Shown here: piece by piece, positions 1-7,135 of the stretch
Numbering within the stretch: position 1 is the stretch's first letter
How the letters are laid out: every line of letters begins with the position of its first letter
Assembly: GCF_048403405.1 (NCBI RefSeq)
Contig: NZ_CP183129.1
Reading direction: 5' to 3' (one strand)
DNA from: Escherichia coli
Lineage (GTDB): Bacteria; Pseudomonadota; Gammaproteobacteria; Enterobacterales; Enterobacteriaceae
DNA length: 64,000 bases
The notes under the pieces: model-generated
Seen by the model: the letters and a program-made list of their open reading frames with translations, nothing else
Database searches by the model: none
Told to the model about the DNA's origin: nothing
Position numbers and translations under genes: made by a program

Positions 1-10
1 TAATAATGTT

Positions 11-142
11 ATGAAAAAGAAACCGGTTGCGCAGTTGGAGCGTCAGCATTCACTGCTGGAAAATCCATGTGCTTATGGGTTGTTATCGCAGTTCCAGGCT
101 GCGATAGTCGTTAACTGTTTTACACTTAATAAAATAATTTGA
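11..142 (+). CDS. yqgB: Small protein YqgB (43 aa)
   Basis: Short ORF not in the track (ATG 11, TGA 140-142). It translates to [43 protein letters not shown], which matches my recollection of YqgB encoded directly upstream of speA. Confidence 0.75.
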
Positions 143-150
143 GGTTCGCT

Positions 151-2127
151 ATGTCTGACGACATGTCTATGGGTTTGCCTTCGTCAGCGGGCGAACACGG
201 TGTACTACGCTCCATGCAGGAGGTTGCAATGAGCTCCCAGGAAGCCAGCAAGATGCTGCGTACTTACAATATTGCCTGGTGGGGCAATAACTACTATGAC
301 GTTAACGAGCTGGGCCACATTAGCGTGTGCCCGGACCCGGACGTCCCGGAAGCTCGCGTCGATCTCGCGCAGTTAGTGAAAACTCGTGAAGCACAGGGCC
401 AGCGTCTGCCTGCACTGTTCTGTTTCCCGCAGATCCTGCAGCACCGTTTGCGTTCTATTAACGCCGCGTTCAAACGTGCGCGGGAATCCTACGGCTATAA
501 CGGCGATTACTTCCTCGTTTATCCGATCAAAGTTAACCAGCACCGCCGCGTGATTGAGTCCCTGATTCATTCGGGCGAACCGCTGGGCCTGGAAGCCGGT
601 TCCAAAGCGGAGTTGATGGCGGTGCTGGCACATGCTGGCATGACCCGTAGCGTCATCGTCTGCAACGGTTATAAGGACCGCGAATATATCCGTCTGGCAT
701 TAATTGGCGAGAAGATGGGCCACAAGGTCTATCTGGTCATTGAGAAGATGTCAGAAATTGCCATTGTGCTGGATGAAGCAGAACGTCTGAATGTCGTTCC
801 TCGTCTGGGCGTGCGTGCACGTCTGGCTTCGCAGGGCTCCGGTAAATGGCAGTCCTCCGGCGGGGAAAAATCGAAGTTCGGCCTGGCGGCGACTCAGGTA
901 CTGCAACTGGTTGAAACCCTGCGTGAAGCCGGGCGTCTCGACAGCCTGCAACTGCTGCACTTCCACCTCGGTTCGCAGATGGCGAATATTCGCGATATCG
1001 CGACAGGCGTTCGTGAATCCGCGCGTTTCTATGTTGAGCTGCACAAGCTGGGCGTCAATATTCAGTGCTTCGACGTCGGCGGCGGTCTGGGCGTGGACTA
1101 TGAAGGCACCCGTTCGCAGTCCGACTGTTCGGTGAACTACGGCCTCAATGAATACGCTAACAACATCATCTGGGCGATTGGTGATGCGTGTGAAGAAAAT
1201 GGTCTGCCACATCCGACAGTAATCACCGAGTCGGGTCGCGCGGTGACTGCGCATCACACCGTGCTGGTGTCAAATATCATCGGCGTGGAACGTAACGAAT
1301 ACACGGTGCCGACCGCACCTGCAGAAGACGCACCGCGCGCCCTGCAAAGCATGTGGGAAACCTGGCAGGAGATGCACGAACCGGGAACTCGTCGTTCTCT
1401 GCGTGAATGGTTACACGACAGCCAGATGGATCTGCACGATATTCATATCGGCTACTCTTCCGGCACCTTTAGCCTGCAAGAACGTGCATGGGCAGAACAA
1501 CTCTATCTGAGCATGTGCCATGAAGTGCAGAAGCAACTGGATCCGCAAAACCGTGCGCATCGTCCGATTATCGATGAATTGCAGGAACGTATGGCTGACA
1601 AAATGTACGTAAACTTCTCGCTGTTCCAGTCGATGCCGGATGCGTGGGGGATCGACCAGTTGTTCCCGGTTCTGCCGCTGGAAGGGTTGGATCAAGTGCC
1701 GGAACGTCGCGCTGTGCTGCTGGATATTACCTGTGACTCTGACGGTGCTATTGATCACTATATTGATGGTGATGGTATTGCCACGACAATGCCAATGCCG
1801 GAGTACGATCCAGAGAATCCGCCGATGCTCGGTTTCTTTATGGTCGGCGCATATCAGGAGATCCTCGGCAATATGCACAACCTGTTCGGTGATACCGAAG
1901 CGGTTGACGTGTTCGTGTTCCCTGACGGTAGCGTAGAAGTAGAACTGTCTGACGAAGGCGATACCGTGGCGGACATGCTGCAATATGTACAGCTCGATCC
2001 GAAAACGCTGTTAACCCAGTTCCGCGATCAAGTGAAGAAAACCGATCTTGATGCTGAACTGCAACAACAGTTCCTTGAAGAGTTCGAGGCAGGTTTGTAC
2101 GGTTATACCTATCTTGAAGATGAATAA
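151..2127 (+). CDS. speA: Biosynthetic arginine decarboxylase
   Basis: Track ORF 139..2127. The ATG at 151 gives [21 protein letters not shown]..., 658 aa, recognised as E. coli SpeA. Confidence 0.97.
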
Positions 2128-2144
2128 TTAAGATTATTCCGCTG

Positions 2145-2185
2145 GCGGGTCAATTTATTTACGTAAATCGGCCCGCTTTCTTTTT
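2145..2185 (+). terminator. Putative rho-independent terminator after speA
   Basis: gcggg (2145-2149) pairs with cccgc (2172-2176). An inner perfect palindrome atttacgtaaat lies between them, and tttcttttt follows. Confidence 0.55.
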
Positions 2186-2272
2186 ATATATTCTTAAAAA
2201 TAATTTAGCTGCTTTTCTTATTAAATAATCCCCCTACAATCGCTGCATTAATTAAATACAGAGGGAACGGTT

Positions 2273-3004
2273 ATGAAAAAAGGGAAAGTACGTAGCGCGT
2301 TGATAGCATTAGCCGTGCTGCTGGCCGGTTGTTCCAGTAATGCGCAGTATAATAGCAGTGCATCAGGCAATGTCGGCACCGCCTGGGGTGGGGATGTACA
2401 CTCATCGGTTCAGGGCGTATCTGCTGAGCGAGCCTGGCGCGATCCGGCAGAGATGATCGTTATTAGTTATTCGACTAATGTTCCTTCCGGCTATGACCGC
2501 GTTTATAGCATTCGTATTAACGAACTGGAATATGCTATTCGCGATGGTAATTTTAATTCTCTACCTATTACGCGTGTTTATGATTCATCCAATAATGAAC
2601 CACGCTATATTGTCCATGCCAGAGTCGGAATGAATTATCAATTATATGTCCGTAATTACAGTCGTAACACCAACTACGAGATCGTTGCTACGGTTGATGG
2701 CCTGGATGTGCTGAACGGCAAGCAAGGTTCGCTGAATAACAACGGCTATATTGTGAATGCCGGAGATTCGTTAGCGATTAAAGGATTCCGCAAAGATAAA
2801 CATACCGAAGCGGCTTTTCAGTTCGCCAACGTTGCTGATTCCTACGCAGCCAATTCGGCGCAAGGCGATGTGCGTAATACCGGGGTAATCGGCTTTGCCG
2901 CCTTTGAATTACAAGGCCCGGCGCAAAACGCGATGCCACCGTGCTCTGGACAAGCCTTTCCGGCAGATAACAATGGCTATGCACCGCCACCGTGCCGGAA
3001 ATAG
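2273..3004 (+). CDS. Uncharacterised lipoprotein (243 aa)
   Basis: Track ORF. A gagggaacgg SD-like stretch precedes the ATG. The N-terminus MKKGKVRSALIALAVLLAG|C has a basic n-region, a hydrophobic core and a lipobox with Cys20. I do not recall this gene at this position in K-12. Confidence 0.75.
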   Translation: MKKGKVRSALIALAVLLAGCSSNAQYNSSASGNVGTAWGGDVHSSVQGVSAERAWRDPAEMIVISYSTNVPSGYDRVYSIRINELEYAIRDGNFNSLPITRVYDSSNNEPRYIVHARVGMNYQLYVRNYSRNTNYEIVATVDGLDVLNGKQGSLNNNGYIVNAGDSLAIKGFRKDKHTEAAFQFANVADSYAANSAQGDVRNTGVIGFAAFELQGPAQNAMPPCSGQAFPADNNGYAPPPCRK

Positions 3005-3070
3005 CAACCTCGCTTGATGCCTCGTCCATTTAAGGCGATAATTAGCGCAAACTTGTGTTTCGCAAATCCA

Positions 3071-3111
3071 ACCCTTCCTCGTCGGGCCTAACGACGCGGA
3101 AGGGTTTTTTT
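3071..3111 (+). terminator. Rho-independent terminator upstream of speB
   Basis: cccttcc (3072-3078) pairs with ggaaggg (3098-3104). There is additional inner pairing (gtcg/cgac), followed by a run of seven T. Confidence 0.7.
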
Positions 3112-3139
3112 ATATCGACTTTGTAATAGGAGTCCATCC

Positions 3140-4060
3140 ATGAGCACCTTAGGTCATCAATACGATAACTCACTGGTTTCCAACGCCTTTGGTTTTTTAC
3201 GCCTGCCGATGAACTTCCAGCCATATGACAGCGATGCTGACTGGGTGATTACTGGCGTGCCGTTCGATATGGCCACTTCTGGTCGTGCGGGGGGACGCCA
3301 CGGTCCGGCAGCGATCCGTCAGGTTTCGACGAATCTGGCCTGGGAACACAATCGCTTCCCGTGGAATTTCGACATGCGTGAGCGCCTGAATGTCGTGGAC
3401 TGCGGCGATCTGGTATATGCCTTCGGCGATGCCCGTGAGATGAGCGAGAAGCTGCAGGCGCACGCCGAGAAGCTGCTGGCTGCTGGTAAGCGTATGCTCT
3501 CCTTCGGTGGTGACCACTTTGTTACGCTGCCGCTGCTGCGTGCTCATGCGAAGCATTTCGGCAAAATGGCGCTGGTACACTTTGACGCCCACACCGACAC
3601 CTATGCGAACGGTTGTGAATTTGACCACGGCACCATGTTCTATACCGCGCCGAAAGAAGGTCTGATCGACCCGAATCATTCCGTGCAGATTGGTATTCGT
3701 ACTGAGTTCGATAAAGACAACGGCTTTACCGTGCTGGACGCCTGCCAGGTGAACGATCGCAGCGTGGATGACGTTATCGCCCAAGTGAAACAGATTGTGG
3801 GTGATATGCCGGTTTACCTGACCTTTGATATCGACTGCCTGGATCCTGCTTTCGCGCCGGGAACCGGTACGCCAGTAATTGGCGGCCTGACCTCCGATCG
3901 CGCTATTAAACTGGTACGCGGCCTGAAAGATCTCAACATTGTTGGGATGGACGTAGTGGAAGTGGCTCCGGCATACGATCAGTCGGAAATCACCGCTCTG
4001 GCTGCGGCGACGCTGGCGCTGGAGATGCTGTATATCCAGGCGGCGAAAAAGGGCGAGTAA
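3140..4060 (+). CDS. speB: Agmatinase (agmatine ureohydrolase)
   Basis: Track ORF of 306 aa, [23 protein letters not shown]... It has arginase-family Mn-binding motifs (GGDH, DAHTD, DIDCLDP) and matches E. coli SpeB. Confidence 0.97.
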
Positions 4061-4096
4061 GCGCCGGATAAGATGCGTTATGCGTCAAATCCGGCG
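4061..4096. repeat. REP-like palindromic element
   Basis: gcgccggataagatgcgttatgcgtcaaatccggcg has gccggat...atccggc arms typical of enterobacterial REP units. It lies between the convergent genes speB and loiP. Confidence 0.5.
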
Positions 4097-4107
4097 TAAT
4101 AAAATGC

Positions 4108-4866
4108 TTACTTAACTCCATCCGCGCTCATACGATCGCGAATATGCTGGGCGCGTTCGGCGGATGCTGGATGGTCGTCAAACATTGAGCTTTGACGGCC
4201 TTCTTCCAGCTTCGCCAGTTTTTCAAAGCTGGTGGCAAGACCTGCCGGGTTGATGCCGCGTTGGCGCAGAAGATCGTAAGAATAATCATCGGCTTCTGCT
4301 TCCTGGCGCTGGGAGAATTGCGAATTAACTAATTTCTCGCCCAGATCACCGAGTTGTGATTGAGATAAACTGCCGACAATCCCGCCCGCAGAGGCCGCAG
4401 CTACTCGCACGGCATTTGTACCAAGTGCCACCTGCATCCCTTTTTTCACATGGCCTAACGCCACGTGCCCCATCTCGTGACCGATCACCGCTTCGACTTC
4501 GTTATCCGTCATCATATCCATCAGCCCGCTATAGACGCGGATACAACCGTTAGCCATTGCAAAGGCGTTCACATCCTTCGCCATATACACTTTGTAATTC
4601 ACCGGCTGACCGTTGATATTGTTGCCTAGCGCATTGGCAATAGTTGTCAGACGTTTAGCGTATTCGCTATTGGCTGGCGCAATCGTCGCCTTGCTGTCCA
4701 TCTCCTGACATGCCTGATCGCTCAGGGTTTTCACCTGCGCATCACTCAAACTGTAAGCCTGAAAAGCTTCCGCTCCTGATGAGAGCAGTCCGTTGGAGTC
4801 CATATTCTGGCAACCGGTCAGTACCGTTGCCACGCTCATTGCTACCAATAAGGCGCGAATTTTCAT
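4108..4866 (-). CDS. loiP: Outer-membrane lipoprotein metalloprotease LoiP (YggG), M48 family
   Basis: Track ORF 4108..5085. The internal ATG at 4866 gives MKIRALLVAMSVATVLTGCQ... (252 aa) with a lipobox LTGC and the HEMGH zinc motif. The upstream extension is probably not translated. Confidence 0.92.
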   Translation of the reverse strand: MKIRALLVAMSVATVLTGCQNMDSNGLLSSGAEAFQAYSLSDAQVKTLSDQACQEMDSKATIAPANSEYAKRLTTIANALGNNINGQPVNYKVYMAKDVNAFAMANGCIRVYSGLMDMMTDNEVEAVIGHEMGHVALGHVKKGMQVALGTNAVRVAAASAGGIVGSLSQSQLGDLGEKLVNSQFSQRQEAEADDYSYDLLRQRGINPAGLATSFEKLAKLEEGRQSSMFDDHPASAERAQHIRDRMSADGVK

Positions 4867-5143
4867 GTTTTCTCTTCCGCACAAGGTCAGGATTATTCTA
4901 AAAATGCGCCGTTTGCAGGTGAATCGACGCTTAGTCTCAGTATAAGGAAAAGCGCAGCGGACGGGCGAGTAGATTGCGCAACATGCGAGCATGATCCAGA
5001 GATTTCTGAAGCGGCAAAAGGATGTTCCATGTACATGACGCGCGGCTTGCGGTAAATTGTTGGCAAATTTTCCGGCGTAGCCCAAAACGCGCTGTCGTCA
5101 AGTCGTTAAGGGCGTGCCCTTCATCATCCGATCTGGAGTCAAA

Positions 5144-7135
5144 ATGTCCTCACGTAAAGAGCTTGCCAATGCTATTCGTGCGCTGAGCATGGACGCAGTA
5201 CAGAAAGCCAAATCCGGTCACCCGGGTGCCCCTATGGGTATGGCTGACATTGCCGAAGTCCTGTGGCGTGATTTCCTGAAACACAACCCGCAGAATCCGT
5301 CCTGGGCTGACCGTGACCGCTTCGTGCTGTCCAACGGTCACGGCTCCATGCTGATCTACAGCCTGCTGCACCTCACCGGTTACGATCTGCCGATGGAAGA
5401 ACTGAAAAACTTCCGTCAGCTGCACTCTAAAACTCCGGGCCACCCGGAAGTGGGTTACACCGCTGGTGTGGAAACCACTACAGGTCCGCTGGGTCAGGGT
5501 ATTGCCAATGCAGTCGGTATGGCGATTGCAGAAAAAACGCTGGCGGCGCAGTTTAACCGTCCGGGCCACGACATCGTCGACCACTACACCTACGCCTTCA
5601 TGGGCGACGGCTGCATGATGGAAGGCATCTCTCACGAAGTTTGCTCTCTGGCGGGTACGCTGAAGCTGGGTAAACTGATTGCGTTCTACGATGACAACGG
5701 TATTTCTATCGATGGTCACGTTGAAGGCTGGTTCACCGACGACACCGCAATGCGTTTCGAAGCCTACGGCTGGCACGTTATTCGCGACATCGACGGTCAT
5801 GACGCAGCATCCATCAAACGCGCAGTAGAAGAAGCGCGCGCAGTGACCGACAAACCGTCCCTGCTGATGTGCAAAACCATCATCGGTTTCGGTTCCCCGA
5901 ACAAAGCCGGTACGCACGACTCCCACGGTGCGCCGCTGGGCGACGCTGAAATCGCCCTGACCCGCGAACAGCTGGGCTGGAAATATGCACCGTTCGAAAT
6001 CCCGTCTGAAATCTATGCTCAGTGGGATGCGAAAGAAGCAGGCCAGGCGAAAGAATCCGCATGGAACGAGAAATTCGCTGCTTACGCGAAAGCTTATCCG
6101 CAGGAAGCCGCTGAATTTACCCGCCGTATGAAAGGCGAAATGCCGTCTGACTTCGACGCCAAAGCGAAAGAGTTCATCGCTAAACTGCAGGCTAATCCGG
6201 CGAAAATCGCCAGCCGTAAAGCGTCTCAGAATGCTATCGAAGCTTTCGGTCCGCTGTTGCCGGAATTCCTCGGCGGCTCTGCTGACCTGGCACCGTCTAA
6301 CCTGACCCTGTGGTCTGGTTCTAAAGCAATCAACGAAGATGCTGCGGGTAACTACATCCACTACGGTGTTCGCGAGTTCGGTATGACCGCGATTGCTAAC
6401 GGTATCTCCCTGCACGGTGGTTTCCTGCCGTACACCTCCACCTTCCTGATGTTCGTGGAATACGCACGTAACGCCGTACGTATGGCTGCGCTGATGAAAC
6501 AGCGTCAGGTGATGGTTTACACCCACGACTCCATCGGTCTGGGCGAAGATGGCCCGACTCACCAGCCAGTAGAGCAGGTCGCTTCACTGCGCGTGACCCC
6601 GAACATGTCCACATGGCGTCCGTGTGACCAGGTTGAATCCGCGGTCGCGTGGAAATACGGCGTTGAGCGTCAGGACGGCCCGACTGCGCTTATCCTCTCC
6701 CGTCAGAACCTGGCGCAGCAGGAGCGTACTGAAGAGCAGCTGGCAAACATCGCGCGCGGTGGTTATGTGCTGAAAGACTGTGCCGGTCAGCCGGAACTGA
6801 TCTTCATCGCGACCGGTTCGGAAGTTGAACTGGCGGTTGCCGCCTACGAAAAACTGACAGCCGAAGGCGTGAAGGCGCGCGTGGTTTCCATGCCGTCTAC
6901 CGACGCGTTCGACAAGCAGGATGCGGCTTACCGTGAATCCGTCCTGCCGAAAGCGGTTACTGCACGCGTTGCGGTAGAAGCGGGTATTGCTGACTACTGG
7001 TACAAGTATGTTGGCCTGAACGGTGCTATCGTCGGCATGACCACCTTCGGTGAATCTGCTCCGGCAGAGCAACTGTTTGAAGAGTTTGGTTTCACCGTTG
7101 ACAACGTTGTTGCGAAAGCCAAAGCGCTGCTGTAA
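5144..7135 (+). CDS. tktA: Transketolase 1
   Basis: Track ORF 5114..7135. The ATG at 5144 gives [32 protein letters not shown]..., 663 aa, recognised as TktA. Confidence 0.97.

Follow-up and report, generated by a model that had tools for sequence, protein, structure and literature searches.

The cysteine of the lipobox of lipoproteins is acylated by Lgt, LspA and Lnt; aspartate at position +2 is the signal for retention in the inner membrane, and lipoproteins without it are carried to the outer membrane by the Lol pathway. Among the described systems closest to the one considered here, the lipoprotein Lpp is a 58-residue alanine-zipper coiled coil ending in ..YRK, sandwiches of the MATH/TRAF and Ig-like types (SPOP, USP7, TRAF6, Avr2 of Fusarium, ToxA) are known to bind short peptides, and DUF7918 (PF25534) is a Pfam family on which no literature was found. 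The present analysis concerns a gene for a predicted lipoprotein of 243 amino acids located between speA and speB in a stretch of Escherichia coli DNA (contig NZ_CP183129.1). The whole stretch of 64,000 nucleotides (nt) is referred to as the window, and all coordinates are positions in it.

The preferred reading, with a probability of about 0.6, is that this is a functional, vertically inherited gene of an outer-membrane lipoprotein, which belongs to a large uncharacterised proteobacterial family, was ancestral at the speA–speB locus and was lost by K-12. The speA–speB spacer of the window is 1012 bp long (2128–3139) and contains a single long open reading frame (ORF), whereas in K-12 (DH5alpha) the spacer is 137 bp long and contains no gene. 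An earlier reading of the sequence, the first-pass annotation, had given about 1 kb here against a gene-free spacer of about 0.1 kb in K-12 and had described a 243-residue ORF with a lipoprotein signal at Cys20; both statements were confirmed. The ORF and its immediate surroundings are as follows:

2273..3004, plus strand: ORF of the 243-residue lipoprotein, stop codon 3002–3004, present in the ORF list and as the same coding sequence (CDS) in RefSeq, with homologues and with a ratio of nonsynonymous to synonymous substitution rates (dN/dS) of 0.06–0.21.
2261..2267, plus strand: Shine–Dalgarno-like GAGGGAA, read from the sequence 5 nt 5' of the lipoprotein ATG.
151..2127, plus strand: speA, biosynthetic arginine decarboxylase, the upstream neighbour, known from its ORF, its translation and the RefSeq annotation of identical loci.
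3140..4060, plus strand: speB, agmatinase, the downstream neighbour, known from its ORF and RefSeq annotation.

In other strains RefSeq names the same CDS 'hypothetical protein', 'lipoprotein' or 'membrane protein'. Judged from the conservation of the ORF, from dN/dS values of 0.06–0.08 relative to other Escherichia and from hundreds of homologues, this is a genuine lipoprotein gene under purifying selection and not a chance ORF.

The orthologue scan covered one genome per species. The order speA–gene–speB was found in E. ruysiae, E. whittamii, E. albertii (where the contig ends inside the gene and only the gene–speB side is visible) and two further Escherichia lineages, as well as in three species of Klebsiella, in Citrobacter, an Enterobacter-like genome, Phytobacter, Kosakonia and Entomohabitans. 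This synteny comprises at least eight genera. Salmonella additionally carries the gene directly after speA, in the order metK–yqgC–yqgB–speA–gene, followed by a GntR/mannitol-dehydrogenase island that separates the gene from speB. Identity of the lipoprotein is 94–96% within Escherichia, 72–75% for Salmonella, Klebsiella and Citrobacter, and 53–68% for Enterobacter, Kosakonia, Phytobacter and Entomohabitans. It evolves faster than its neighbours, since SpeA and SpeB retain 95–98% identity between genera against its 72–75%. In comparison with four other Escherichia lineages, the low dN/dS given above goes with a synonymous divergence (dS) of 0.32–0.35; the dS of speB, 0.15–0.26, is regarded as similar.

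Distribution within E. coli was determined by megablast of window positions 1900–3400 against 5426 complete genomes, with a reciprocal search using the K-12 spacer. The full speA–ORF–speB arrangement was present in 3543 genomes (65%), and the gene-less arrangement of K-12 in 1867 (34%), essentially all at 99–100% identity to the K-12 spacer; the locus is accordingly a two-allele polymorphism, with about 15 rearranged cases besides. Only the flanks of the query matched in the K-12 derivatives DH5alpha and C600 and in ATCC 8739, so the absence of the gene from K-12, as stated in the first-pass annotation, holds. The gene-bearing allele is carried by O157-like and O55:H7 strains and by IAI1, a strain of phylogroup B1, in which the protein is WP_000758915.1. 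The gene has been inactivated independently: in strain 23CRST038, one of the rearranged cases, an insertion of IS1 removes the 5' part of the gene (L003:2248-3434), and a truncated allele of 174 amino acids (P0025) is represented by 448 member sequences. The 'Shigella flexneri' assemblies SFBU0723 and SFBU1023 were ignored; they are error-rich at the locus, with broken ORFs and SpeA of only 53–77% identity, and are unsuitable for presence/absence calls at speA–speB. Judged from the synteny across genera and from the single uniform gene-less haplotype, the gene is ancestral at speA–speB in Enterobacteriaceae, and the K-12 arrangement is derived, the gene having been lost by the K-12 lineage.

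The GC content of the ORF is 0.486 (0.406 in the central third), and that of its third codon positions (GC3) is 0.459; the corresponding values are 0.543 for speA and 0.557 for speB, with GC3 of 0.61 and 0.64. The centre of the gene is thus more AT-rich than speA and speB, as the first-pass annotation had stated, but its two interpretations, that the gene had been inserted between speA and speB and that the AT-richness fits horizontal acquisition, did not survive comparison. A horizontally acquired accessory gene in an originally short spacer would agree with the absence from K-12 and the other gene-less E. coli, with the lower GC of the ORF and with the scatter of homologues over alpha-, beta- and gamma-proteobacteria. 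However, the same position is occupied in all other sampled Escherichia species and in at least seven further enterobacterial genera, identity falls roughly with taxonomic distance, dS is similar to that of speB, and the gene-less allele is one uniform haplotype. Orthologues in Klebsiella, Citrobacter, Kosakonia and Phytobacter lie 5–8 GC points under their own flanks, and because this deficit is common to them, low GC is best regarded as a trait of the gene and not as a sign of recent import. At the gene borders, no insertion sequence (IS) elements, tRNA genes or significant flanking direct repeats were found. Acquisition is therefore largely refuted and retains very little probability. Even less is left for a decaying or non-functional ORF, which would be in line with the loss from about a third of E. 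coli genomes, the low GC3, the IS1-disrupted copy and the truncated allele; dN/dS has stayed at 0.06–0.08 over a long divergence, the protein is conserved at full length in many genera, and the Shine–Dalgarno and −10-like elements are conserved, all of which argues against decay.

The predicted protein begins with MKKGKVRSALIALAVLLAG, followed by the lipobox cysteine, and contains cysteines at positions 20, 224 and 241. Its features are arranged in the following order:

2273..2332, plus strand: signal peptide (residues 1–19) and lipobox LLAG directly before C20, with Ser at +2; seen in the sequence, with Cys20 invariant in 48 aligned homologues.
2369..2476, plus strand: N-terminal 'GTxWG' module (residues 33–68) with two predicted beta strands (33–43 and 60–67); T36, W38, G39, R53 and Y66 are invariant.
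2522..2920, plus strand: predicted core beta-sandwich (residues 84–216) with the motifs VDGLDV, GY, GFR, FxF, YA and NxGVIG, supported by high model confidence (90–98) and invariant columns.
2936..3001, plus strand: C-terminal tail (residues 222–243), PPC..AFPADNNGYAPPPCRK, with Cys224 and Cys241, between which a disulfide may form; delimited by conservation and lower model confidence (60–66).

The signal has the basic n-region and hydrophobic h-region typical of lipoproteins, followed by a lipobox of the form [LVI][ASTVI][GAS]C, and a lipobox is present in 210 of 249 relatives. None of these 210 has Asp at +2, where the E. coli protein has Ser21. The mature protein contains 10.8% Asn, 9.4% Ser, 8.1% Val and 6.3% Tyr, which bears out the enrichment in these residues reported earlier, and the Pro-rich tail with two cysteines reported in the same place reads PPCSGQAFPADNNGYAPPPCRK and includes Cys224 and Cys241. 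Invariant among the 48 aligned homologues are C20, T36, W38, G39, R53, Y66, Y122, N128, V141-D-G-L-x-V146, G158-Y159, G171-F-R173, F182, Y191 and G204/G207, while conservation reaches 90% or more at the tail residues F229, P230, Y236, A237, P239 and P240. The YAxPP motif of the tail always lies 0–7 residues from the C-terminus, and relatives end with K in 29% of cases and with R in 25%.

A word-indexed search found 290 homologues, none of which has a Pfam domain, and in their sources they go by nothing more specific than 'hypothetical', 'lipoprotein', 'outer membrane lipoprotein' or 'membrane protein'. When 1.84 billion cluster representatives were searched with a profile built from 48 diverse family members, 4278 clusters matched at E ≤ 1e-3 and 3309 at E ≤ 1e-10; with clusters defined at 50% identity, the family comprises at least about 4300 clusters. 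Members were found across alpha-, beta- and gamma-proteobacteria, including Enterobacterales, Pseudomonas, Gilliamella, Neisseria, Kingella, Ralstonia, Variovorax, Comamonas, Burkholderia, Paracoccus, Inquilinus and others. The window protein matched no Pfam family at E ≤ 1, nor was a family assigned when it and its divergent relatives were compared with Pfam and NCBIfam, the NCBIfam matches being limited to lipoprotein signal regions. PADLOC gave no match for the lipoprotein, and PHROGs gave matches at the level of the signal peptide alone (E 0.03–0.04). With no family matched in Pfam, NCBIfam, PADLOC or PHROGs, there is no sign of an enzymatic or defence-system role.

The AlphaFold2 model, built with the 48-member alignment, has a mean predicted local distance difference test score (pLDDT) of 85.5 and a predicted template-modelling score (pTM) of 0.76. 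It consists of a signal helix, disordered residues 21–30, 13 beta strands within residues 33–213 (pLDDT 90–98) and the tail (pLDDT 60–66). The fold is predicted to be an all-beta sandwich, in agreement with the beta structure suspected in the first-pass annotation. A profile search of PDB sequences gave no match, and Foldseek against PDB gave a best E of 0.03 with TM < 0.3, that is, no close solved relative. The annotation's inability to assign the protein also stands, since Pfam, NCBIfam and PDB searches matched no characterised family.

Relatives of the core domain were found in phages. Foldseek against predicted viral structures gave five matches at E ≤ 1e-3, the best with E of 7e-7 at 28% identity, and tblastn related residues ~90–225 to proteins of Rhizobium phage RHph_I1_18, Sinorhizobium phage Phosso and Agrobacterium phage Atu_ph07. 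A pattern scan detected 40 IMG/VR loci with relatives of the core domain. The phage proteins are about 230–370 amino acids long, have no signal peptide or lipobox (loci including L127:4989-5714 and L128:3938-4729) and are encoded in replication or early gene clusters. Their order is the core, a His/aromatic-rich low-complexity linker, the GTxWG module and a terminal FP..YAxPPxxWxG. One of them matches DUF7918 with 32.3 bits against a cut-off of 27, and this model is matched by 22 of 35 aligned phage relatives, with a best E of 1.6e-8. In hhalign comparison of the lipoprotein family with the phage family, core residues 84–216 aligned with 99.8% probability (E 4.4e-29), the N-terminal GTxWG module of the lipoprotein aligned to phage residues 162–193 with 91.5% probability (E 8.6e-7), and the tails aligned weakly. 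Secreted bacterial relatives that are not lipoproteins and have the phage-like permuted order also exist (P0237, P0249). In 15 contigs with cyanophage-like neighbours, as read from the sequences, the gene next upstream resembles, by eye, a vWA protein with a MIDAS motif.

On the basis of these features, the following mode of action is proposed. The Sec signal peptide with its lipobox would direct the lipoprotein to export, with Cys20 acylated by Lgt, LspA and Lnt, and Ser at +2 would route it through Lol to the outer membrane. In the model, an all-beta sandwich of about 185 residues is borne on a disordered tether roughly 12 residues long, and the sandwich probably serves as a non-enzymatic binding module. 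The candidate ligand site includes T36, W38, D142, D/N145, Y159, R173, Y191 and N202, conserved even in phage relatives; this polar and aromatic set would suit recognition of a sugar, peptide or cation, contains no recognisable catalytic constellation and appears to be a mix typical of glycan- or peptide-binding sites. The near-invariant C-terminal FP..YAPPP may be a short linear interaction motif, which in enterobacteria is probably stapled by a Cys224–Cys241 disulfide.

The putative transcription signals of the spacer comprise four features:

2144..2188, plus strand: hairpin 2144–2177 with a U-rich tail, read as the putative intrinsic terminator of speA from its RNA fold and from an equivalent hairpin after speA in other genera.
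2189..2260, plus strand: AT-rich upstream region (GC 0.331), the putative promoter region of the lipoprotein gene, with a −10-like CTACAAT at 2234–2240 (TACAAT 2235–2240).
3014..3042, plus strand: sigma-70-like motif TTGATG-17-GATAAT, found by promoter scan in the interval from the end of the lipoprotein gene to speB.
3070..3113, plus strand: strong hairpin 3070–3106 with U7, 27 nt 5' of the speB ATG, in the presumed speB leader.

The speA-proximal hairpin with its U-run has a folding free energy (dG) of −20.9 kcal/mol (z −4.4), and the speB-proximal one of −24.4 kcal/mol (z −4.3); in both cases 0 of 200 shuffled sequences were as stable. Loci of Escherichia, Klebsiella, Citrobacter and Enterobacter-like bacteria retain the core C-TAC(A/T/C)AT of the −10-like element while the neighbouring bases diverge; the consensus promoter scan did not list CTACAAT at 2234–2240. 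The motif GCTTGAwGC..GGCGATAAT in the 3014–3042 region is kept across genera and in the K-12 spacer. Together with the speB-proximal hairpin it is retained from Escherichia to Entomohabitans. This hairpin is identical in K-12, and 14 of its pairs are conserved in 10 loci, two of them with compensatory changes. The Rfam scan of window positions 1–5200 gave no family, the speB-proximal hairpin included, and a simple terminator scanner missed both hairpins flanking the gene. In the first-pass annotation the ORF was bracketed by its own terminators. Folding supports both hairpins and U-runs, but the downstream one is not the gene's own: because it is unchanged in K-12 and conserved across genera upstream of speB, it is best assigned to the upstream region of speB, from where it can still act as a putative terminator of the lipoprotein transcript (of that of speA in K-12). 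A terminator-like hairpin that follows a promoter-like motif and still precedes speB would place a terminator in the presumed speB leader, and for this reason attenuation-type control of speB is suggested. Hairpins with U-runs on both sides and the conserved −10-like element suggest that the lipoprotein gene is an independent transcription unit; in the preferred reading it would be transcribed on its own, with no mechanistic tie to polyamine synthesis.

The same 9-mer TTTTTATAT follows both hairpins (2181–2189 and 3107–3115, 926 bp apart). Deletion between these repeats was considered as the origin of the K-12 allele and rejected, since its product would remove the gene but not match the K-12 sequence. 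A simple in-situ deletion was likewise rejected: the 60 nt that separate the end of speA from the shared hairpin in K-12 resemble the replaced 936 bp locally no more than expected by chance and are only ~64% identical to the post-ORF spacer. These 60 nt (L001:1729-1788) are collinear with the 58-nt post-ORF spacer (window 3005–3063) and retain the promoter-like motif, but are as distant from it as the spacers of Klebsiella and Citrobacter, while the post-ORF spacers of the window and E. ruysiae are 99% identical. Despite the divergent spacer, the K-12 flanks (speA, hairpin, speB) are near-identical to those of the window, and the adjoining end of speA is ordinary, with 27 of 1728 sites differing between K-12 and an O157-like strain. 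One possibility is that recombination with a divergent donor lacking the gene put the K-12 spacer in place.

The gene order in the window is yqgB (11–142), speA, the spacer, speB, loiP on the minus strand and tktA; in CFT073, speB is c3522 according to the literature. The neighbourhood of speA–speB is a hotspot of insertions and deletions. IAI1 and 23CRST038 carry a D-glucosaminate (dga/dagR) island adjacent to speB, on its far side as seen from speA; in IAI1 the island separates speB from loiP, which in the window and K-12 adjoins speB directly. Linkage of the gene to speA/speB is confined to Enterobacteriaceae. In 16 other genera outside this family the neighbours, scanned against Pfam, are unrelated, and no neighbour family recurs. 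In Variovorax and Comamonas, the homologue directly follows hisG–hisD, with an aminotransferase gene nearby; in Comamonadaceae it is thus wedged in a biosynthetic gene cluster, as it is at speA/speB in enterobacteria.

Other functions were weighed against that of an outer-membrane binding lipoprotein. Protection of the envelope, by an orphan immunity protein against a toxin acting in the periplasm or by a lipoprotein that masks receptors in superinfection exclusion, is unlikely. The predicted outer-membrane location, the presence/absence polymorphism, the evolution faster than that of the neighbours and the occurrence of core-domain relatives in phage genomes would all suit it; but PADLOC gave no match and PHROGs matches are confined to the signal peptide, there is no adjacent effector, plasmid or prophage context (the matches in the plasmid database are chromosome-like or megaplasmid records), inheritance is vertical, and the relatives in phages, which lack a signal peptide, belong to replication rather than to lysogeny or exclusion modules. 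A coupling to polyamine synthesis, for example as a periplasmic or envelope partner of SpeA, which older literature reports in the envelope, or as a binder of agmatine or putrescine, is somewhat less probable still. In its favour, the gene lies directly 3' of speA in every enterobacterial genus examined, even in Salmonella, and a cation-binding site would be compatible with the conserved Trp, Tyr and Asp. Against this, the gene has a promoter-like element of its own, a terminator-like hairpin lies between it and speA, and no speA/speB linkage was found in Providencia, Proteus, Gilliamella, Neisseria, Kingella, Ralstonia, Variovorax, Paracoccus, Pseudomonas and others examined. K-12 makes putrescine via SpeA and SpeB without the gene. 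Apart from synteny, no evidence for a polyamine tie was found. A shade more doubtful is a joint reading, in which outer-membrane lipoproteins and circularly permuted cytoplasmic phage early proteins, together the DUF7918 superfamily, share a new ligand-binding fold and an envelope role with polyamines or agmatine underlies the position behind speA; examples, equally doubtful, would be binding of agmatine or putrescine or docking of envelope-associated SpeA, a role missed by K-12 research through the deletion. A second peptidoglycan-tethered lipoprotein of the Braun type, whose C-terminal Lys (..CRK) is joined by L,D-transpeptidases, is very improbable. The last two residues of the E. coli protein are R-K, the same as in Lpp, K or R is the final residue in 54% of sampled relatives, and the conserved tail invariably occupies the C-terminus, but a terminal Lys is present in only 29% of relatives and for this reason does not define the family. 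The model is, moreover, an all-beta sandwich and not a coiled coil, and the NCBIfam match to Lpp covers the signal peptide alone.

The reading as a vertically inherited outer-membrane lipoprotein is therefore retained, although several points weigh against it. The phage relatives lack signal peptides and are encoded in replication or early modules, and therefore the ligand of the domain need not be specific to the envelope. The adjacency to speA throughout Enterobacteriaceae could still reflect function. The gene is dispensable: 34% of E. coli genomes have lost it, and others carry truncated or IS-disrupted copies. In the literature, nothing was found on this gene, including the expression, lipidation, localisation or binding of its product.

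About two-thirds of complete E. coli genomes carry a conserved, predicted outer-membrane lipoprotein that is absent from the model strain, and Salmonella, Klebsiella, Citrobacter and many other proteobacteria carry it too. The loss of the gene by K-12 probably explains why the lipoprotein has gone unstudied, and the locus clearly illustrates how envelope proteins escape cataloguing when research leans on K-12. As an outer-membrane lipoprotein gene annotated in thousands of genomes, it is ordinary in kind. New are the direction of the event, which is loss in K-12 and not gain in this strain, the large size of a family without a Pfam or NCBIfam model, and the permuted relationship of this family to DUF7918 and phage early proteins. 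A family definition together with the link to DUF7918 and phages would fill a hole in domain databases, and because natural presence and absence alleles exist, the lipoprotein is a tractable target for envelope biologists.

In comparison with known systems, the lipoprotein shares with Lpp/OprI a canonical lipobox, a residue other than Asp at +2 and, in E. coli, the C-terminal ..RK, but differs from the short coiled coil of Lpp in its predicted all-beta structure and its 223 mature residues; the models NF011925 (13 bits, cut-off 108) and NF040598 (10.9 bits, cut-off 43) match residues 8–31 only. MATH/TRAF-type and Ig-like antiparallel beta sandwiches are its best structural neighbours, with low scores only and ~90–110 aligned residues, and the likeness to their peptide binding is to be read as analogy alone. 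With DUF7918, for which phage and metagenomic proteins (P0310–P0366) were taken as representatives, it shares a homologous core with the motifs VDGL(D/N)V, GY, GFR, FxF, YA and NxGVIG, and with the phage proteins of that family the GTxWG module and the terminal FP..YAxPP motif. The DUF7918 phage proteins, in contrast, have His/aromatic-rich linkers and neither signal peptide nor lipobox, and the DUF7918 model (gathering threshold 27 bits) matches, at E ≤ 1, neither the window protein nor any of 48 members of the lipoprotein family. The order of modules also differs, being N-module, core and tail in the lipoprotein and core, N-module and tail in the phage proteins. Judged from these alignments, the window lipoprotein is not a member of DUF7918 by the Pfam criterion but its circularly permuted remote relative.

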